This document shows positions 1 to 7,624 of a stretch of DNA of 7,624 nucleotides, piece by piece. Source of the DNA: a virus. Taxonomy: Duplodnaviria; Heunggongvirae; Uroviricota; Caudoviricetes. The position numbers and the translations under genes are program-made. Location of the stretch: the IMG/VR virus record IMGVR_UViG_2671180828_000013; one strand, given 5' to 3'. How positions within the stretch are numbered: the first letter of the stretch is position 1; each line of letters starts with the position of its first letter. The notes beneath the pieces were generated by a model. It was not told the origin of the DNA and did no database searches. It saw only the letters and a list, made by a program, of their open reading frames with translations.

Positions 1-585
1 TTACGCACCAGCCTTTTTCTGGGTTACATTTAAATGATTAACCTTAGCTTCACATTCTTCATAAATCTCTCTTACAGTATCATCGGGTAACTCTTGTAGA
101 CTCAATGCTAGTGCTCTTTTGACTCCGCTCAATGAGTGCAGTTTTTGAATATCTGTATCAAGCAAAACGGTTAGTAGTTCGGCCCCTTTTCTGATCAATA
201 AGTTGGACAAAATCTCTTGTTCAGATGAAGTTAGCGAGTCCCACGCCCTCATGATGATGGAATCACTATCATCAATTCTTTGTTTTTTTGTTCTTTTTGT
301 TTGTTCAATTGGTTCTTTTTTCATGCTTGGCTCATCACAATAACCATTGACCAGCCACTCCATAGATACATGTTCTCTTTCTGCAATGTTCTGGAGATGG
401 TGCTTTCTTGGTTGTGGTGGCGGCTGATTGTTTCTCCTTTTGTAGTAGTTCTGCAATGTCTGAACGTTTATTCCCCATGCTCTAGCCGCCTCACTTCTCG
501 ATTTGTAACGCTCTGCAAGACGAAAAATCCGTTCGATCACTGGTTCTTTTCCTTCGTCGAGAAAAGAACTGTTTTTCATGTTCAT
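1..585 (-). CDS. Phage CI-type repressor with N-terminal helix-turn-helix domain
   Basis: 194-aa ORF from ATG at 585-583 (second in-frame ATG at 579-577) to TAA at 3-1. AAGGAA Shine-Dalgarno about 9 nt upstream on the minus strand (plus coords 595-600). N-terminal stretch ERIFRLAERYKSRSEAARAWGINVQTLQNYYKRR ... MEWLVNGY fits the HTH pattern of phage CI-type repressors. Divergent to a Ner-like gene as in a Mu-type immunity region. The ORF-track extension to 714 is AT-rich and low-complexity (NNRTNKRTKSR...) and is treated as non-coding leader. Confidence 0.75.
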   Translation of the reverse strand: MNMKNSSFLDEGKEPVIERIFRLAERYKSRSEAARAWGINVQTLQNYYKRRNNQPPPQPRKHHLQNIAEREHVSMEWLVNGYCDEPSMKKEPIEQTKRTKKQRIDDSDSIIMRAWDSLTSSEQEILSNLLIRKGAELLTVLLDTDIQKLHSLSGVKRALALSLQELPDDTVREIYEECEAKVNHLNVTQKKAGA

Positions 586-752
586 GCTCTCAGGTTCCTT
601 TTTATTTATCTTATTGATATTAATAACAAAAACACCGCAAAGAATAAAAAGAACAAAATACCTTGATTTGGTTCTTTTGTTTGTTCTATTATTTACCCGT
701 ACAGATATCCGCACGAATATCCGCGCGGGTAACTTTTTAGAATAGAGGAAGT
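586..752. promoter_or_regulatory. Divergent switch region between repressor and Ner-like genes; expected to hold operators and both promoters
   Basis: 167-bp AT-rich intergenic region between divergently transcribed regulator genes. Contains a tandem direct repeat ATATCCGC (705-712 and 717-724, 12-bp period), a TTATTGATATTAATAA near-palindrome (about 611-626) and a GTTCTTTTGTTTGTTC motif (671-686). Function is inferred from position only. Confidence 0.5.
663..692 (+). promoter_or_regulatory. Candidate sigma70-type early promoter for the Ner-like gene and downstream operon
   Basis: TTGATT (663-668) as -35, 18-bp spacer, TATTAT (687-692) as -10, about 60 bp upstream of the ATG at 753; GAGG ribosome-binding motif at 745-748. 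Hexamer matching by eye only; alternative -10 candidates exist (e.g. TAGAAT at 738-743). Confidence 0.3.
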
Positions 753-1001
753 ATGAGTAGAAGAGAAGTTTCAGATCACGATTGGCCGCCTGAAATCATC
801 AAGGCGCGCTTACACATGGCTGGCTTATCACTGCGCTCTTTATCTTTAAAGGCTGGTTACAGCAGGGATTCGCTGAAAAGCGTATTACGTACTCCTTGCC
901 GACCGTATCAGCAAATAATTGCTGATGCTCTTGGGGTATCGCCTGAAGAAATCTGGCCCAGTCGATACCAGGTTAAGAGCTATATGAGAAAGGCGTCATG
1001 A
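753..1001 (+). CDS. ner: Ner-like DNA-binding transcriptional regulator (Ner/Nlp family)
   Basis: 82-aa ORF. Sequence DWPPEIIKARLHMAGLSLRSLSLKAGYSRDSLKSVLRTPCRPYQQIIADALGVSPEEIWPSRYQ matches the recalled Ner/Nlp pattern (DWH.ADIIAGL ... LS..S...G......L.NAL.R.WPKGE.IIA.AL...P..IWPSRY). TGA stop at 999-1001 is followed 1 nt later by the next ATG. Confidence 0.85.
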   Translation: MSRREVSDHDWPPEIIKARLHMAGLSLRSLSLKAGYSRDSLKSVLRTPCRPYQQIIADALGVSPEEIWPSRYQVKSYMRKAS

Positions 1002-1002
1002 T

Positions 1003-2421
1003 ATGTATGTCATTGCAAAAGAACTGATTGGCGCGCCCGGAATGCCTGCTACAACAAAAGGTATTCGCCAGGCATTACAACGTTACGTACAAGGGAAAAG
1101 CTGTTGTTCCCGTCGTCGCTCAGGCTCTAAAGCAACTGAATACAGCATCGACTGTTTACCTGAAGTGACGCAGCAGGCATTACGTGAACGCTACGCCCTG
1201 CAACTGATGACTCAAAAAGTCGATGAATCACCGGCTCCAGTGGTGACAAAGGCCAGACGCTCGCCTGCCGTGGTTGATGCGGTGGAGGCATATCGCGGAT
1301 CACCACAACTGATGGTCGAACGCCTTAATGCCCTGACTGAAAACCAGCGCCAGGTGGCTGATGCACGAATCGCGATCGTCAGCGAAGTTCTGAAAGTCGC
1401 GCAACAACCTGGTTTCAGCTGTGCGAAGGCTACCGCCCCTTCGGTGGCAGAAGATACGGCAGCTGCGCTGGAGCAGAAAAGCGGCTCAGCAATGAATCAG
1501 CTGTTTAACACACTTTCAGACGGCTGGACGGTGATTTCAGACGGTCTGCATGATGTACAGGCCATGACCGACACCATCAGCGATAAAATTGATGCGCTGG
1601 AGAATGCCGTTTCAGGGATGGGGATTGTGCAGGATATCAGTGCCTTTACGGCCAGTTTTACTGCCCTGAAAGGGAATGCCGCCGCCCTGATTAATGCGCC
1701 CCGTCGCATGGCTGAATCGCTGGCCGGAATGTTTGCCGTGCTGGCGGGGCTGCCCGGCGATCCTTCCCTGTCGCTGACCGGAAAAGCCGGAACGCCGTCC
1801 GGCAGCCTGACCACAAACCGTGACAGCACGACAGAGCAGGCCATGCCGCAGCTGTACCGCACACTTTCTTCCCTGCGTTACACCCTCAGCGAACAGGATG
1901 ATCCGCAGCGCCTGATTGGTCTGACGCCTGCGGCACAGAACAATATCCGTCTGCTGCGGAGCGTCATGCAGAGTGCAGCCCTGGTGTCGCAGGCGCAGAC
2001 GGTCGGAAAACTGCTGGATCAGGTCATCCGGCAGAATACGACGCACGTTCAGGATACTGACCGTGCGGGCGGACTGGCCTGGCTGGAAAGTTCTGCTGAT
2101 GTGCAGCGTATCAACCGGGATTTGAGCGATGTCATGGAACAACAGGTGCTGGATCTGTCCGCACAGGGCCATACCGGCACCGCCCTTACATTACGTGATG
2201 CAGGGCTTGCGCTGACAGAAGATTTAACCACGCGGAGCGTGCATCTTCCCGGTGCTTTTCAGGTCATGGTGCGAACCACCGAACCGGCACTGGTCACGCT
2301 GTACCGTGCCACCGGTAACAGCCGCCGCTGGCAGTATTTTGTCCGCAGAAACAATATCCCCGATCCGGTTTTTGTTCCGGGTGGCCGCCGCGTGGAGGTG
2401 ATCAGTGAGCAGCAGGATTGA
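1003..2421 (+). CDS. Hybrid ORF: MuA-transposase-like N-terminal DNA-binding domain (about the first 150 aa) continuous with a tail protein at the Mu gp43 (N) position (or tape-measure-derived segment); probable deletion-derived in-frame fusion
   Basis: ATG at 1003, TGA at 2419-2421. N-terminus ...APGMPATTKGIRQAL...SGSKATEYSIDCLPEVTQQAL resembles the recalled MuA N-terminus (...LPGLPKTSAGVIYVA...GVKGGKAIEYNANSLPVEAKAAL), and a following ENQRQVADARIAIV stretch resembles the MuA SDSQRRLAEKWLPAV region. No DDE catalytic-core-like sequence follows; the remainder is Ala/Gly/Ser/Thr/Leu-rich like tail/tape-measure proteins. Its 3' end overlaps the hub gene start by 17 nt, the position of the gene preceding the hub in Mu-like tail modules. 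Confidence 0.55.
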   Translation: MYVIAKELIGAPGMPATTKGIRQALQRYVQGKSCCSRRRSGSKATEYSIDCLPEVTQQALRERYALQLMTQKVDESPAPVVTKARRSPAVVDAVEAYRGSPQLMVERLNALTENQRQVADARIAIVSEVLKVAQQPGFSCAKATAPSVAEDTAAALEQKSGSAMNQLFNTLSDGWTVISDGLHDVQAMTDTISDKIDALENAVSGMGIVQDISAFTASFTALKGNAAALINAPRRMAESLAGMFAVLAGLPGDPSLSLTGKAGTPSGSLTTNRDSTTEQAMPQLYRTLSSLRYTLSEQDDPQRLIGLTPAAQNNIRLLRSVMQSAALVSQAQTVGKLLDQVIRQNTTHVQDTDRAGGLAWLESSADVQRINRDLSDVMEQQVLDLSAQGHTGTALTLRDAGLALTEDLTTRSVHLPGAFQVMVRTTEPALVTLYRATGNSRRWQYFVRRNNIPDPVFVPGGRRVEVISEQQD

Positions 2422-3529
2422 ACTGTATATCGGCGGCAGTATTTTTTCCGGCTGGCTGACGGTCAGCGTCCGTCGCTCGCTGGAGCATCTGGCCGGGTCG
2501 TTTGAACTGGGGCTGATGCTGCCCGGTGAGCGCATCCCCTCAGCCCTGCGGACCGGTCAGCCCCTGACGCTCAGAATTAACGGGCAGACGGTCATCAGTG
2601 GCTGGCTGGATCAGGTCAGTCAGCGGATCAGTGCAACCCGTCATCAGATCAGCATCAGCGGTCGGGATAAAACCGGCGACCTGGTGGACTGTGCCGCCAT
2701 CCATCCCGGCAGCCAGTGGCGCAACCGGACGCTGGCACAGATTGCCGCAGATTTATGTGCGCCCTTCGGGATAGCCGTGCGCTGGCAGGTTAACGACGAC
2801 ACGGCTGCACGCCCCTTCAGCTCTTTTACGCTGGAAAACTCAGAAACCGTGGCGGATGCGCTGACCCGTGCTGCCCGGCATCGCGGGGTGCTGGTGACCA
2901 GTAATGCTGACGGCGATCTGGTGTTCACCCAGGCAGGAAGCCAGCAGACGGACAGACTGGTGCTGGGAGATAACCTGCTTGATGCCGATTACAACACGGA
3001 CTGGCGAGGACGATACAGCGAATACCGTGTCCGGGGACACGGGCGCGGTGGTGGCAAACGGGGAGACAGCGAATCCGCCGCCCGTCTGGCAGCACCTGTG
3101 GGCGTCATCAGTGATGAGCAGATCGGCCGCTACCGGCCGAAAATCATCCTCGCCGATCAACAGACAGACATCACCGGTGCACGGCAGCGTGCCCTGCGTG
3201 AAATGCGCCGTGCGATTGCCCGTTCAGAACGGTTTTCTGCCACCGTGCGTGGCTGGTTCCGGGATGATGGCCGGTTATGGGATGTCAATCTGCTGACCGG
3301 TGTTTCAGCCCTGCGTTTCGGTATAGAACAGACTGAACTGCTGGTCTGTCAGGTGGAGTTTTTACTTGATGAGCATAACGGGGAAGTCACCCGGCTGGTA
3401 CTGGCACCGCGTGACGGCTTTATCGTTCCGGCAGAGCCGGACAGTAAGGGCCGGGGTGGTTCCGGTGACGATGTTGATGCCTTTATTCGCCAGCAGATGA
3501 AAAAACAGGGGATCAGCTTTGATGAATGA
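2405..3529 (+). CDS. Baseplate hub protein (Mu gp44 / P2 gpD late-control-D family)
   Basis: 374-aa ORF with GTG start at 2405 preceded by GGAGG (2394-2398) at 6-nt spacing; overlaps the upstream ORF by 17 nt. Size and sequence character (IELYIGGSIFSGWLTVSVRRSLEHLAGSFELGL ...) fit the gpD/gp44 family; TGA at 3527-3529. Confidence 0.8.
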   Translation: MSSRIELYIGGSIFSGWLTVSVRRSLEHLAGSFELGLMLPGERIPSALRTGQPLTLRINGQTVISGWLDQVSQRISATRHQISISGRDKTGDLVDCAAIHPGSQWRNRTLAQIAADLCAPFGIAVRWQVNDDTAARPFSSFTLENSETVADALTRAARHRGVLVTSNADGDLVFTQAGSQQTDRLVLGDNLLDADYNTDWRGRYSEYRVRGHGRGGGKRGDSESAARLAAPVGVISDEQIGRYRPKIILADQQTDITGARQRALREMRRAIARSERFSATVRGWFRDDGRLWDVNLLTGVSALRFGIEQTELLVCQVEFLLDEHNGEVTRLVLAPRDGFIVPAEPDSKGRGGSGDDVDAFIRQQMKKQGISFDE

Positions 3530-4133
3530 TGAAGTGTTCAGCCGCCTGATTGCCCCGGTAACGCGCGGTATTCGCCTGTTGTTTGGCCGGGGCGTTCTGA
3601 CCGGCACACATGACGAACTGAAAATGCAGAATGTGCAGCTCACCGGCATGGACGGCGAAACCTTTGATGATGTGGAGCGTCCCCAGCAGTACGGGCAGAT
3701 CAGCGTTCCCCTGCCGGGTGCGGAAACCTTTTTTGCCTGTCTGGGCGGACAGCGGGATCAGACTGTGGTGCTTGTGGTGGAAGACCGGCGCAGCCGCCCG
3801 ACCGGACTCACAGCCGGAGATACGGGGGTGTATCACCATGAGGGGCACCGGATACGGTTAACAAAGGATGGCCGCATTATTGTGACATGCAAAATGCTGG
3901 AGATTTACGCCGACGAGGGGATGCGGGTGGATACGCCGGAAGCCACCTTTACGGGCAATGTGACGGTGGATAAGAACCTGCATGTTAAGGGTAATTTCGC
4001 GCTTGAGGGTACGGGGAAATCTCAGGGACTGTTCACAATGTCGGATGCCGTTATTGCAGGGATACGGTATTCCGGCCATGTGCATCATGATAACGGCGAA
4101 GGCAGTAAGACAGGAGTGCCGGAGAATGGCTGA
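3522..4133 (+). CDS. Baseplate spike / baseplate assembly protein V-like (Mu gp45 family)
   Basis: ATG at 3522 (the ORF track opens at an in-frame TTG at 3519) overlapping the hub gene stop; about 203 aa, consistent with gp45/gpV-type proteins. Position directly after the hub gene. TGA at 4131-4133 overlaps the next start. Confidence 0.75.
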   Translation: MNDEVFSRLIAPVTRGIRLLFGRGVLTGTHDELKMQNVQLTGMDGETFDDVERPQQYGQISVPLPGAETFFACLGGQRDQTVVLVVEDRRSRPTGLTAGDTGVYHHEGHRIRLTKDGRIIVTCKMLEIYADEGMRVDTPEATFTGNVTVDKNLHVKGNFALEGTGKSQGLFTMSDAVIAGIRYSGHVHHDNGEGSKTGVPENG

Positions 4134-4563
4134 TATTGCAATTGTGTGGGATCAGGGATGCGGTTCGCTGCAACTGAACGGTGCCGACCTGCTGACGGAT
4201 GACAGTCTGCTGACGGCCGTTCTGATTTCGCTGTTTACTGACCGCCGGGCGCTGGCATCGGATGAAATCCCTGACGGTACGCGCGACCGCCGGGGATGGT
4301 GGGGAGACAGTTTTCGCCCGCGCCCCATTGGCTCCCGTCTGTGGCTTCTCAGCCGGGAAAAAACGCTGGCCTCGGTGATAAGCCGTGCCCGTGCTTACGC
4401 GGATGAGGCGCTGGGCTGGCTCAGTCAGGATGGCGTGGCGTCATCCGTGGTCTGTCATGCAGAACGTGTGGGACACGCGCGGCTGGCGCTTTCGGTGCGC
4501 ATAACCCTGCCTGATGGTTCAGTGAGGCCCATGATTTTTTATGCTGATCTTAAGGGGGAGTAA
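4126..4563 (+). CDS. GP46 / gp25-like (GPW family) baseplate wedge protein
   Basis: Start chosen at internal ATG 4126 (MADIAIVWDQGCG...), with AGGAG at 4112-4116 and ATGGCTGA overlap with the preceding stop. The upstream part of the 3982 ORF is out-of-frame overlap with the spike gene. 145 aa, typical for this family; TAA at 4561-4563. Confidence 0.8.
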   Translation: MADIAIVWDQGCGSLQLNGADLLTDDSLLTAVLISLFTDRRALASDEIPDGTRDRRGWWGDSFRPRPIGSRLWLLSREKTLASVISRARAYADEALGWLSQDGVASSVVCHAERVGHARLALSVRITLPDGSVRPMIFYADLKGE

Positions 4564-5645
4564 TGCCTTATCAGCCTTTACCGCTGGCACAGTTAATCAC
4601 GCAGACACAGCAGGATATCAGCCAGCGCCTGCCCGGCTCGCAGCCGGGTGTGAATGAAACCACCCTGAATGCCATTGCTTACGCTCAGGCAGGGTTATCT
4701 GCTCAGGAGCATGAGCATCTGGCCTGGATTGCGCGTCAGATCATCCCGACCGAAGCCGATGAAGCCGAACTGCTGAAACACTGTGCATTCTGGGGCGTCA
4801 TGCGTAAGCCTGCCTCTCGGGGGGACGGGCCGGTTCAGCTGATGCTGACCACGGATGCGGGGATCAAGGAAGGTGTGCTTCTCCAGCGAAGTGATGGCGT
4901 GGTTTACCGTATCACCACCTCCCTGACCGGTAAGGCCGGTACGCTGAATGTCAGTGTGGAAGCCGAAAGTGCCGGTCGTGCGGGGAATGCCCCGGCAGGG
5001 ACAAAACTGACATTTATCACACCGCAGGCGGGGATCAACCAGACGGCCACGGTGACCGGAACGGGGATCACCGGTGGTGCGGATGTGGAAACCGTGCCGG
5101 AGCTGCTTTCCCGTCTGGTTTTCCGGGTGCAGAATCCACCGTCCGGCGGCACGCAGTATGATTTTGAACGCTGGGCGCGTGAAGTGCCGGGCGTGACGCG
5201 GGCATGGTGCCGCCCGGAATGGCCGCAGGCGGGCAGCGTGGGGGTAACGTTTGTTCAGGATAATAACCCGGATATTTTCCCCGGTGACGGTGATGTTCAG
5301 CGGGTGGCGGATTATATCCGCAGTCATGATGATCCGGCGACCGGCCAGCCTGTCGGACAGCCTCTGGGGCCGACGGTGACCGTGTTTAAACTGACCAATA
5401 AGCCGGTGCCCTTCAGCATCAGGATCATCCCGAAAACACCGGAGAATCAGGCGGCCGTAAAACAGGCGCTGACCGACCTGTTGTATAACGAATCCCGGCC
5501 CGGCGGTCTGGTTCTGCCGTCGTCTTTCTGGCGGGCGGTGGCAGGGGTGAAAAATCTGGAGGATTTTGAAGTGCGCAGTCCGCTGACGTCAGTTCAGGCG
5601 GGAGACAGTGAGCTGCTGACGGTAGGAGAAATCACATGGCTGTAA
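4563..5645 (+). CDS. Baseplate J-like protein (Mu gp47 family)
   Basis: 360-aa ORF; ATG at 4563 in a TAATG overlap with the previous stop; GGGGGAG Shine-Dalgarno at 4554-4560. Size and position after the gp25-like gene fit baseplate J. Confidence 0.85.
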   Translation: MPYQPLPLAQLITQTQQDISQRLPGSQPGVNETTLNAIAYAQAGLSAQEHEHLAWIARQIIPTEADEAELLKHCAFWGVMRKPASRGDGPVQLMLTTDAGIKEGVLLQRSDGVVYRITTSLTGKAGTLNVSVEAESAGRAGNAPAGTKLTFITPQAGINQTATVTGTGITGGADVETVPELLSRLVFRVQNPPSGGTQYDFERWAREVPGVTRAWCRPEWPQAGSVGVTFVQDNNPDIFPGDGDVQRVADYIRSHDDPATGQPVGQPLGPTVTVFKLTNKPVPFSIRIIPKTPENQAAVKQALTDLLYNESRPGGLVLPSSFWRAVAGVKNLEDFEVRSPLTSVQAGDSELLTVGEITWL

Positions 5646-6196
5646 CCCTGACCCCGCATCAGCGCGCCCTGTTGCAGTTACTGCCTGACGGGCTGGCATG
5701 GGACAAGCGTCCGTCATCCGTACTGGCATCATTATGTCTGGGCCTCAGTCATTCGACAGCGCGTGTATCCTGGACGGGTAAACAGCTGCTTGCCGAGCGT
5801 TTCCCTGACACGTCGCGCCTGCTGCTGGAAGACTGGGAGCGTTATCTCGGGCTTCCCGAGTGTGATATGGCCGGAGCCACCCTCACGGAGCGACAGCGTT
5901 ATGCCGGAAATAAATACCGGATGAAGCCCTCGCTGAACCGTGAATTTTATATCCGGTTTGCGGCGGAGTTTGGTTATCAGATTGACATTCAGCCCTCACC
6001 GGATTCGCAGTGGGTCAGTATTGTCACGATTAACAGTGAAACCGGCTACCGGAATATGAATGTGCTGGATGATATTCTCACGCCGCTGCGTATTTATGAA
6101 GGCGGTGCGCTGGAATGTATTCTGAACCGTTATAAGCCTGCATGGCAGACGTTTATTTACGTTTATGCAAACAGCCATGAAGAGGAGACTATTTAA
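5636..6196 (+). CDS. Mu gp48-like baseplate/tail protein (YmfQ / DUF2313 family)
   Basis: 186-aa ORF; ATG at 5636 overlapping the baseplate J stop (TAA 5643-5645); AGGAG at 5624-5628. N-terminus [26 protein letters not shown] and the size fit the gp48/YmfQ family that follows baseplate J in Mu-like modules. Confidence 0.8.
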
Positions 6197-7077
6197 TGTT
6201 TCATGTTGATAATAATTCCGGCGTGGCGAATATGCCTGCGCTGGCACCGGCGCAGAGTAATACCACAACCTGGTTTACCGAAGGTGACGGACAAAAAGGT
6301 ATCAGCTGGATTGGTCAGGACTGGCTGAATATTCTCCAGGCCGAACTGCTGAATATTCTGGCTGAAGCCAGTATTCAGCCGGATAAGGCGCAGTTAAACC
6401 AGCTTACGCTGTCCATTAAAGCCATTATCGCTGCGAATGCCTTTTCCCGGAAAAATAACCTGAAAGAAATTGCTGATGCCGGTGCGGAGGCCCAGCGTCT
6501 GGCCCGTGGTTATCTTGGTCTGGGGACGCTTGCCACAAAAAACAGTCTTGGTCCCGGTGACGTTAATGCCCTGGCGAAGGATCAGAATCTCGCCGACCTG
6601 GAGAATAAGGGAACCGCCCGTAATAATCTGGATGTTTACAGCAAAAGCGAAGGTGATAACCGTTACCTGCGCAGGGAGCAGAACGGCGCAGACATTCCGG
6701 ATAAAGGGGCTTTTATCGATAACGTCGGTTTACGGGAAACGGTAAACAGGGCGGCGAATGCCCTGCCATCGGACGGCACCGCCGTTGCCGCGAACAGGCT
6801 GGCAAATGCCCACACAATTAATGGTGTTCCCTTTGACGGGACGCAGGATATCACTATCTCATCAGGAACAGTAACCGCCATAAGACTGGGGTCGGTGACC
6901 GCACATATGCCCGGAACATGGGAAAGCTGGGATCTGAATCTGGGGGGCGGCAATGTTCTTACCGGAATTAAAGTACAGGATGTCGGTAAGAATACGGCAG
7001 ATAACGTCGGCGGCGTGTATTACCGGCCGTTGCAGTATCTGTTAAATGGAGCATGGGTGACGGCTGCAAGTATATAA
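6196..7077 (+). CDS. Tail fibre protein (Mu S-like: constant N-terminal part plus a short variable C-terminal part)
   Basis: 293-aa ORF; ATG at 6196 in a TAATG overlap; GAGGAG at 6183-6188. N-terminus [33 protein letters not shown]...[16 protein letters not shown] resembles conserved tail fibre N-terminal domains. Contains a gix-like site at codons about 173-181. TAA at 7075-7077. Confidence 0.8.
6713..6738. other. gix/hix-like crossover site for a Gin/Hin/Pin/Cin-family serine DNA invertase
   Basis: TTATCGATAACGTCGGTTTACGGGAA matches the recalled Mu gix sequence TTATCCAAAACCTCGGTTTACAGGAA at 22 of 26 positions (13 of 14 in the right half). It lies about 175 codons into the tail fibre gene, where the constant/variable boundary sits in Mu S. 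A convergent tail fibre assembly gene follows downstream. Confidence 0.55.
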
Positions 7078-7085
7078 TGATATTC

Positions 7086-7105
7086 AGAAGGCCTTCCGGC
7101 CTTCT
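7086..7105 (+). terminator. Hairpin terminator between convergent tail fibre and tail fibre assembly genes
   Basis: Perfect 8-bp inverted repeat AGAAGGCC (7086-7093) / GGCCTTCT (7098-7105) with TTCC loop, followed by TTATT on the plus strand. Sits in the 31-bp gap between the stops at 7077 and 7109. Confidence 0.6.
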
Positions 7106-7108
7106 TTA

Positions 7109-7624
7109 TTACTGTGGCTGCTCAGGCCATTTAATGGCGTTAAATTCAGCTTCTGTTTTAATGGCGGGTAGTTCCATTTTCTTCACCTGACTGATGTATG
7201 CCATCCATTGGGTAAGTGCTGCTCTGTCTTCATCGCTGATGGTGCCCAGTTGTAGCTCCGTTCTCCAGTCATTAATTTTTTCATATGCCTGATTAAGATA
7301 TGACTGGCGCATTGCTTCCAGTTTTCTTGCGTAGTTAACCGGAATACGGGAGATTATGCCATTATCAAACTTCCAGTTTCCTGAAATATCCGTGCCTTCA
7401 GGGAGTTCATCGACCTCAACCACAGAAAACCCCGCAGGATACAGCGCCGAGGCGTCCTGTGATATTGAGCAGATAACGCCGCTGTCAGGTGTTATGCAAA
7501 GTTTATATTTTTTGGTGAATAATGGCAGGGATTCGTAGAAATCCTTACCATCTTCACTCTGGAAATACTGAACATTATTACCATATGGCATATTTTCAGG
7601 ATAATAACGGGTTATATTTTTTAG
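7109..7624 (-). CDS. Tail fibre assembly protein (Mu U / U'-type chaperone), 5'-partial at the window edge
   Basis: Stop TAA at 7111-7109 (minus). C-terminus LGTISDEDRAALTQWMAYISQVKK ... KWPEQPQ is the classic tail fibre assembly motif, and YFQSEDGKDFYE ... GVICSI ... SGNWKFDNGI matches recalled Mu U features. The minus-strand frame stays open from the in-window ATG (7591-7589) to the window end (LKNITRYYPEN upstream), so the true start probably lies just beyond 7624. Confidence 0.8.
   Translation of the reverse strand, partial: LKNITRYYPENMPYGNNVQYFQSEDGKDFYESLPLFTKKYKLCITPDSGVICSISQDASALYPAGFSVVEVDELPEGTDISGNWKFDNGIISRIPVNYARKLEAMRQSYLNQAYEKINDWRTELQLGTISDEDRAALTQWMAYISQVKKMELPAIKTEAEFNAIKWPEQPQ

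Follow-up and report, generated by a model that had tools for sequence, protein, structure and literature searches.

Invertible tail-fibre segments of phages are described as mirror images in which each alternative tip is followed by a downstream gene of its own (PMC4134206, PMC11915804). In P1 (Cin), e14 (Pin) and the P2-like prophages of EC958 (PMC4134206), a serine invertase and 26-bp crossover sites of one consensus mediate in-frame exchange of the fibre C terminus, and each variable part carries its own "minor fibre" or tail-fibre assembly (Tfa) gene. In Mu, according to the summary given in PMC9608196, each tip is co-transcribed with its own Tfa, which remains on the virion; the N-terminal domain of Tfa binds the distal fibre tip and the C-terminal domain is a conserved helical part (North 2019, as cited in the same source). 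Here, we compare with these systems a tail-fibre gene and the convergent tfa gene beside it in a 7,624-nucleotide stretch of viral DNA (IMG/VR record IMGVR_UViG_2671180828_000013), referred to below in its entirety as the window, which is part of an Escherichia coli Mu-like prophage of the Sp18-like family. The two genes belong to a segment that very probably constitutes a complete, conserved and naturally inverting switch with two fibre tips and a single Tfa gene, rather than the product of a deletion.

The likeness to the G segment of Mu and SfMu is extensive. The gp44–gp48 baseplate operon precedes the fibre gene, the constant part of the fibre (Sc) is homologous to Mu S residues 1–191, a 26-bp gix-type site lies inside the fibre open reading frame (ORF), and a Gin-family recombinase is encoded adjacent to the segment. 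The alternative C-terminal tips, termed Sv and S'v, have the fold of Mu S and S', and Tfa is homologous to Mu U. The differences lie in size and content: the segment spans ~1.3 kb here versus ~3 kb in Mu, the variable parts are 116–126 amino acids (aa) long versus 319–341 aa in SfMu and lack a middle domain, one Tfa gene is present instead of two, an AT-rich spacer of 51–121 nt precedes tfa where SfMu has 1–2 nt, and an inverted repeat of ~150 bp is coding. Of the features that define Gin-type segments, the serine invertase, the inverted 26-bp sites, the occurrence of both orientations and the in-frame alternative C termini are all found; the mirror-image content, with one chaperone per tip, is not. 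The same contrast separates this segment from those of P1, e14 and EC958, since one Tfa here accompanies two tips. The complex of Mu Tfa with its fibre tip (PDB 5YVQ) is formed by the same two protein families, but here one tip has no co-transcribed Tfa. The window's own family is that of the Sp18-like phages of Shiga toxin-producing E. coli (STEC) (PMC2669165, PMC10132054), in which two loci discussed below, L004 and L083, share its gene order and one-Tfa segment. The window differs from these in carrying type A tips, with an Sv 46–48% identical to their type B, and in being an internally deleted copy. The family is thus already known; we found no discussion of the one-chaperone asymmetry or of the minimal tips in the accessible literature.

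The invertible fibre segment and its single tfa gene

The features of the segment are as follows, in window coordinates except for the last line.

6196–7077, plus strand: tail-fibre gene in the Sv-ON state, Sc fused in frame to Sv (293 aa, from the ORF list)
6196–6724, plus strand: Sc, the constant N-terminal part (baseplate-attachment region and shaft), assigned by homology to Mu S
6713–6738: 26-bp crossover site of gixL type, TTATCGATAACG TC GGTTTACGGGAA, with its core dinucleotide at 6725–6726
6718–6866: left arm of a long inverted repeat, coding for ~45 residues common to both tips
6867–7074, plus strand: Sv-specific distal tip domain of ~70 aa, the presumed receptor-binding end
7086–7105, plus strand: terminator between the convergent Sv and tfa, a G+C-rich hairpin AGAAGGCCTTCCGGCCTTCT followed by a T-rich tail TTATTACTGT
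7109–7624, minus strand, incomplete at the window end: tfa, which encodes the tail-fibre assembly protein (chaperone) and converges on the fibre gene
L001 10835–10860, minus strand: partner crossover site

The crossover site is the sole match to a Gin/Cin-type pattern in the window, and no match was obtained in any of 200 shuffles. It is identical at 22 of 26 positions to the reverse complement of Mu gixL. It also resembles the crossover sites of the EC958 prophage (PMC4134206), and it is the point at which the alignment between the two orientations breaks. Downstream of the site, the variable part (6739–7077) consists of 113 codons including the stop (7075–7077). The hairpin that follows scored as terminator-like on the plus strand in a promoter and terminator scan, with the same sequence present in L001 and L012. 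No plus-strand ORF of chaperone type lies between 7077 and 7109, and no Tfa remnant was found in the 31 nt separating the Sv stop from the tfa stop. The product of tfa matches Caudo_TAP (PF02413, E 4e-19, 69.5 bits against a cut-off of 22.1) and is homologous to Mu U (PDB 5YVQ_B, E 4e-16).

Relatives of the window were found by megablast against complete E. coli genomes, and the remainder of the segment was read from L001, a 99%-identical E. coli locus that shows 98.9% identity to the window from position 1431 and continues past its end (window coordinates equal L001 coordinates minus 2805). The full tfa gene (L001 9914–10435) encodes 173 aa and starts 6 nt past the window end. The segment reads crossover site, Sv tip, terminator, tfa (minus strand), S'v tip (minus strand), crossover site and gin; it measures ~1.32 kb from core to core and contains exactly one tfa. 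After the crossover site, S'v extends for 119 aa versus 116 aa for Sv. Two pairs of inverted repeats bound the segment in L001, one with arms at 9523–9608 and 10770–10855 (86 nt, 93%) and another at 9622–9671 and 10707–10756 (50 nt, 84%). The invertase gene, beyond the window at L001 10926–11498 on the plus strand, encodes a protein of 190 aa that is 75% identical to SfMu Gin, and its equivalent in a Citrobacter rodentium locus (L101) carries PF00239 and PF02796.

Both orientations of the segment occur in sequenced genomes. The Gin-family serine invertase flips the DNA between the site at 6713–6738 and its partner, and both outcomes are seen: Sc is joined in frame to Sv, as in the 293-aa fibre of the window, L001 and L103, or to S'v, as in L002 (NCCP 13983), whose 296-aa ORF has tfa behind it in the same direction, with Sv inverted beside the recombinase gene. 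The flanks of L002 and L103 (FORC_069) are 99.5% identical over 3.2 kb on each side, and the sole structural difference between the two loci is an inversion of ~1.35 kb. Because these flanks are 99.5% and not 100% identical, the notion that FORC_069 and NCCP 13983 represent a single clone differing only by the flip was rejected. Among complete E. coli genomes with type A segments, 26 are Sv-ON and 6 are S'v-ON, and several IMG/VR loci are seen in each orientation.

Homology to Mu accounts for both ends of the fibre. Residues 1–191/198 match Mu S residues 1–184/191 (phmmer against PDB: 8JU3_A, E 1e-46; 5YVQ_A, E 1e-45). A profile of the tips, in turn, matches residues 403–503 of Mu S, its C-terminal end (5YVQ_A, E 4e-23), and residues 415–488 of Mu S', where it reaches the very last residue (8JU3, E 1e-18). 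The middle domain of the variable part, ~210 aa corresponding to about residues 190–400 of Mu S, is absent from both tips. Sv and S'v share their first ~45 residues, then diverge, and remain alignable to the end (IRLG...G.V.TG...RP.Q...G.W). The ratio of nonsynonymous to synonymous substitution (dN/dS) between Sv alleles is 0.05–0.16 at dS values of 0.12–1.4, which indicates strong purifying selection on Sv. An AlphaFold2 monomer model of the 293-aa fibre, built on an alignment of 25 sequences, has a mean predicted local distance difference test score (pLDDT) of 44, with only the tip reaching 56–84; a low overall score is expected for a trimeric fibre. Foldseek searches with this modest model return 5YVQ_A (E 0.017) and 8JU3 (E 0.06) as top matches, both with weak E-values. 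PDB 9CUY, the short tail fibre of phiTE, also matches the tip by sequence, but only its N terminus is modelled, so that it is uninformative regarding Tfa. As judged from these comparisons, Sv is a complete tip and not an N-terminal fragment.

These results bear on a first-pass annotation of the window, which had located the gix-like site, the 113 codons to a stop at 7077, the terminator and the convergent chaperone gene correctly, and had described an asymmetric segment without a same-strand chaperone, as is borne out by the one Tfa gene found both in the segment and in the whole of a 39-kb relative. The Mu layout it described also agrees with that of SfMu, whose variable parts of 319 and 341 aa are each followed by their own Tfa. 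It had gone on to propose that ~1.2 kb was missing and the segment partly deleted, a view contradicted by the complete segment in L001, the equally short S'v and the family-wide occurrence of the layout. Alignment to Mu S and S', which it had put forward as a check on whether 6739–7077 is the N-terminal part of a longer tip, instead reaches the C-terminal ends of those proteins. The suggestion that a complete fibre is made only after inversion finds no support at the far end of the segment, where S'v is just as short, and a truncated or non-functional Sv fibre is at odds with the constraint on the tip and the greater frequency of Sv-ON. In the structure prediction it had called for, the best matches are 5YVQ_A and 8JU3, at weak E-values, and the model as a whole is poor.

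The silent tip is easily misread in databases. In RefSeq/PGAP, the inverted tip of L001 (10487–10861) is a pseudogene, a phage tail protein labelled "incomplete; missing N-terminus", and the name given to the active 293-aa fibre is "hypothetical protein". These labels mislead: the 293-aa protein is a complete fibre, and the pseudogene beside gin is a silent alternative tip, not a product of decay.

Distribution of the layout and the prophages that carry it

The one-Tfa layout is present in ~200 E. coli genomes, and the phage family occurs in ~4% of the complete genomes of this species, O157:H7 and other STEC among them. For type A, 26 complete E. coli genomes cover at least 80% of the region, the best being 99.9% identical. 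Of the 231 complete genomes that match type B, in which diverged tips occupy the same layout, 182, mostly STEC, reach at least 80% query coverage. In IMG/VR, 77 loci were found with the fibre protein; every complete segment among them reads Sc and Sv, terminator, then tfa, S'v and gin, with tfa convergent on Sv, or the inversion of this order, and none contains two Tfa genes. The Sv alleles comprise A, A' (79%) and B (46–48% identical to A), the S'v alleles A, B and C are 29–40% identical to the window S'v, and Tfa has two main alleles. The type B layout occurs in L004, a Mu-like phage inserted in the Stx2c phage LC727881 (CC119), and in L083, a 39-kb Sp18-like prophage inserted in comEC with all genes intact, in which a Tfa profile search finds the tfa of the segment as the sole homologue. 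A fibre with 92% identity and the same one-Tfa layout is found in C. rodentium. Sp18 DNA is packaged (PMC2669165), and Sp18-like relatives at variable sites in CC119 STEC are consistent with ongoing transposition (PMC10132054). Intact relatives with a short tip and no same-strand chaperone, the observation named in the first-pass annotation as decisive against its deletion proposal, therefore exist in L083, the CC119 phages (PMC10132054) and Sp18 (PMC2669165). Two or more Sp18-like copies per genome, in differing states (Sv-ON, S'v-ON or a locked form described below), were also noted in NZ_AP022815 (JE86-ST05), NZ_CP103972 (DLI.5a), NZ_CP069093 (TOE17) and NZ_AP043639 (AST46).

Elsewhere, tips of this kind accompany a Tfa gene. 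In eight of eight phages checked (SfMu, Pectobacterium POP15, Cronobacter CR8, Escherichia 19-1-2, Av-05 and A4, Actinobacillus pPE4 and Yersinia vB_YpM_44), the homologue of the Sv-type tip has a same-strand Tfa or chaperone gene 1–10 nt downstream, and the Sv-type fold is therefore normally Tfa-linked. The canonical pair of Tfa genes is seen in SfMu, L046 and vB_YpM_44. The one-Tfa asymmetry is, accordingly, real and unusual. A scan of genome contigs with an Sc profile returned 14 loci and shows one-Tfa segments in Citrobacter, Kluyvera and Pantoea, a set too small for statistics. In Citrobacter braakii (L087), the Sv-type tip is the Tfa-linked one, and the other tip, of the same fold, has no Tfa; with the roles thus reversed, lack of a Tfa cannot be assigned to a single tip clade. 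The Kluyvera and Pantoea segments differ in that the tip without Tfa has another, collar-domain fold.

Each of these three loci has peculiarities of its own. L087 contains three gix-like repeats (6819–6896, 8780–8856 and 9190–9223), with ~330 nt between the last two, and a single Tfa; it may represent a multiple-inversion arrangement of Min or shufflon-like type with a third mini-tip. In Kluyvera intermedia (L098, 6001–8748), the plus strand carries a collar-like Sv together with Tfa, and an unaccompanied alternative tip of 186 aa neighbours the invertase on the minus strand. In Candidatus Pantoea persica (L090, 6001–7731), fibre and Tfa form a single 576-aa ORF, either a fusion or the result of a lost stop codon, and the inverted alternative tip (7752–8201) is a tail-collar-type domain without Tfa.

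The window prophage itself is an internally deleted member of the family. Its remaining identified genes are listed below.

1–714, minus strand: repressor-like gene
753–1001: Ner-like gene, next in the window after the repressor-like gene
Upstream of the fibre gene: baseplate genes gp44, gp45, gp46, gp47 and gp48

Pfam matches were obtained for the four baseplate genes scanned (PF21683/PF22255, PF06890, PF04865 and PF10076); gp46 takes its name from the corresponding gene annotated in the 99%-identical locus L001. The ORF at 1003–2421 joins the first ~143 codons of the gene for Mu transposase A, which include the N-terminal DNA-binding domain (PF02316), to the distal part of the DNA-circularisation gene (gp43), the junction lying near 1431. 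With the intact prophage L083 as reference, window positions 418–1432 align to 4073–5090 and positions 1431–6866 to 30563–35995, revealing an internal deletion of ~25.5 kb that removed the rest of A, B, early and middle genes, and those for lysis, head, sheath, tube and tape measure. Because of this deletion, the window prophage is defective and unable to make particles.

All Sp18-like phages also encode a ~684-aa protein with a SASA domain (sialate O-acetylesterase-like, PF03629) and DUF6645. Its gene lies after gin and before com/mom, with genes for DUF1378 and DUF826 proteins coming next; the product may either be cargo that modifies surface glycans or act as an enzyme of the virion.

L001 11584–13638: SASA/DUF6645 gene
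L083 37957–39996: SASA/DUF6645 gene
L101 7584–9635: SASA/DUF6645 gene

How one Tfa gene might accompany two tips

We infer that a single Tfa would serve both tips, its fibre-binding N-terminal domain not being specific to one tip allele, and that tfa would be expressed independently of the late operon through signals of its own, a Shine-Dalgarno sequence and an AT-rich spacer. Tfa would hence also be made in the "wrong" orientation, the one captured in the window. We place the probability that one shared Tfa serves both tips, expressed from its own predicted signals in the AT-rich spacer, at roughly 0.5. This reading is favoured because the fold is always Tfa-linked elsewhere, the Tfa N domain is conserved, the roles of the tips are reversed in C. 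braakii, locked forms of the segment keep tfa and the spacer is long. The more general arrangement it implies, a chaperone gene inside invertible DNA that is expressed either way and serves two same-fold tips, with its supply uncoupled from the late transcript that selects the tip, is put forward tentatively, its chances falling a little short of even.

The spacer and the N domain provide two lines of evidence. In one-Tfa segments with two same-fold tips, 51, 79, 121 and 69 nt at 22–36% GC separate the tip from tfa, versus 10 nt or less in canonical tip–Tfa pairs and 1–2 nt in SfMu, a correlation drawn from 4 one-Tfa cases and ~11 canonical ones. A strong Shine-Dalgarno sequence (AGGAGG) precedes tfa in type A, and the AT-rich spacer leaves room for putative expression signals of its own. 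The Tfa N domain is 89–94% identical between the type A window and the locked forms, among the locked forms, and between these and type C. That of type B is visibly similar on inspection of the sequences, though its S'v is only ~40% identical, so that the resemblance holds across loci with S'v of types A, B and C. Because the N domain is similar across diverged tips, Tfa does not appear to be allele-specific.

The locked derivatives have lost, by a precise deletion, S'v and most of gin, of which ~95 nt of the 3' end are left; Sv, the terminator and the convergent tfa with its 120-nt spacer are kept. Examples number 7 among complete E. coli genomes and 7 among IMG/VR loci; they share a single junction, and both Sv alleles are represented.

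L012 4882–5760: locked locus
L017, L016 and L010: further locked loci

At the junction, ...GGCTTATAAT is joined directly to TTAATTAACG, creating a near-consensus promoter-like site (ATGATA-17-TATAAT) that points at tfa, which is not evidence of function. The N domain of the locked tfa shows a dN/dS of 0.07–0.18. In three of these lineages (L012, L016 and L010), the 320 nt upstream of tfa, non-coding up to the DUF6645 gene, are 4–5% diverged, and synonymous sites in the tfa N domain have dS values of 0.17–0.45, 4–10 times the divergence of this adjacent DNA. Such low non-coding divergence points to constraint on a divergent promoter region or else to a mosaic produced by recombination. With the adjacent non-coding DNA so much less diverged, the dN/dS of tfa in locked variants is weakened as an argument that the gene functions there.

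A number of observations weigh against a shared and independently expressed Tfa. Scans of types A, B and C for a sigma-70 promoter on the strand of tfa scored at background. In L083, the presumed promoter regions Plys and PI have the motif TYCCGCAAARCCYGCC in common, but no copy of it precedes gp44, com or tfa. A terminator sits between Sv and tfa. Tfa alleles do not co-vary with Sv alleles. The diversity of tfa in locked forms appears largely recombinational, with any purifying selection having possibly acted in unlocked ancestors. Moreover, the Kluyvera and Pantoea segments demonstrate that truly Tfa-independent tips can sit in one-Tfa segments. Several of these points would be accommodated if Sv were chaperone-independent, a credible fallback offered in the first-pass annotation: the short fibre would trimerise alone, and only S'v would need Tfa, which might stay attached as a component of the adhesin. 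Sv indeed has no same-strand Tfa and meets a terminator directly, no promoter for tfa was detected, and the major Tfa alleles correlate with the type of S'v and not with that of Sv. The fibre is much shorter than Mu S, the intertwined middle domain of ~210 aa being absent, and may therefore have less need of the guard against register errors that is attributed to Tfa, and a tip of another fold without Tfa is found in the one-Tfa segments of Kluyvera and Pantoea; fibres of Sf14 likewise have no Tfa homologue at all (PMC11821841). This alternative is nonetheless less likely than a shared Tfa, since Sv and S'v share one fold and one conserved core, all eight phage homologues of the Sv-type tip directly precede Tfa, the Sv-type tip of C. 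braakii is the Tfa-linked one, and locked derivatives that have only Sv retain an intact tfa.

That Mu and P2 fibres canonically depend on Tfa (PMC9608196), and that tfa is antisense to the late operon in Sv-ON, would also fit the main suggestion of the first-pass annotation, an OFF or decoy state in which misfolding of the 293-aa product leaves particles without fibres or unable to infect, and S'v-ON alone works. Such a role for Sv-ON is very improbable in light of the strong purifying selection on Sv (dN/dS 0.05–0.16, at dS up to 1.4) and the maintenance of at least three Sv alleles (A, A' and B). Sv-ON is, in addition, the commoner state in lysogens (26 versus 6 for type A; ~182 of 231 for type B), and the locked derivatives were fixed as Sv-ON and then diversified into both Sv alleles. 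Least credible is a recent deletion, by which the window segment would be the remnant of a Mu-like 3-kb G segment that lost its distal part and a plus-strand chaperone. In its favour, each variable part is ~0.65 kb shorter than in Mu or SfMu, there is one Tfa gene fewer, and the window prophage does carry a large deletion elsewhere. The identical layout is found, however, in intact 39-kb prophages and ~200 genomes whose tips are only 46–48% (Sv) or 29–40% (S'v) identical. The 31 nt between the two stops hold no trace of Tfa, and both tips are equally short and end exactly as Mu S' does. Any loss of a Tfa gene would date to the ancestor of the whole lineage and not to this copy.

Consequences for the pairing of tips and chaperones

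Fibre tips and Tfa chaperones are swapped to re-target phages and tailocins, for which the working rule is to move a tip together with its downstream chaperone. The Sp18-like phages are a widespread family that breaks this tip-with-chaperone rule: two tips are accompanied by one chaperone gene, which is antisense to the late operon in the commoner orientation. If the Tfa is shared, as we propose, it would be generic across tips that are 30–50% identical and could be supplied in trans. If Sv is independent, a Mu-type tip of ~70 aa would be able to fold alone, and one of two homologous tips may have evolved chaperone independence, the mirror image of the arrangement we prefer. Either outcome would be useful for engineering, and the two tips of Sp18-like phages form a naturally matched pair in which the basis of Tfa dependence can be studied.

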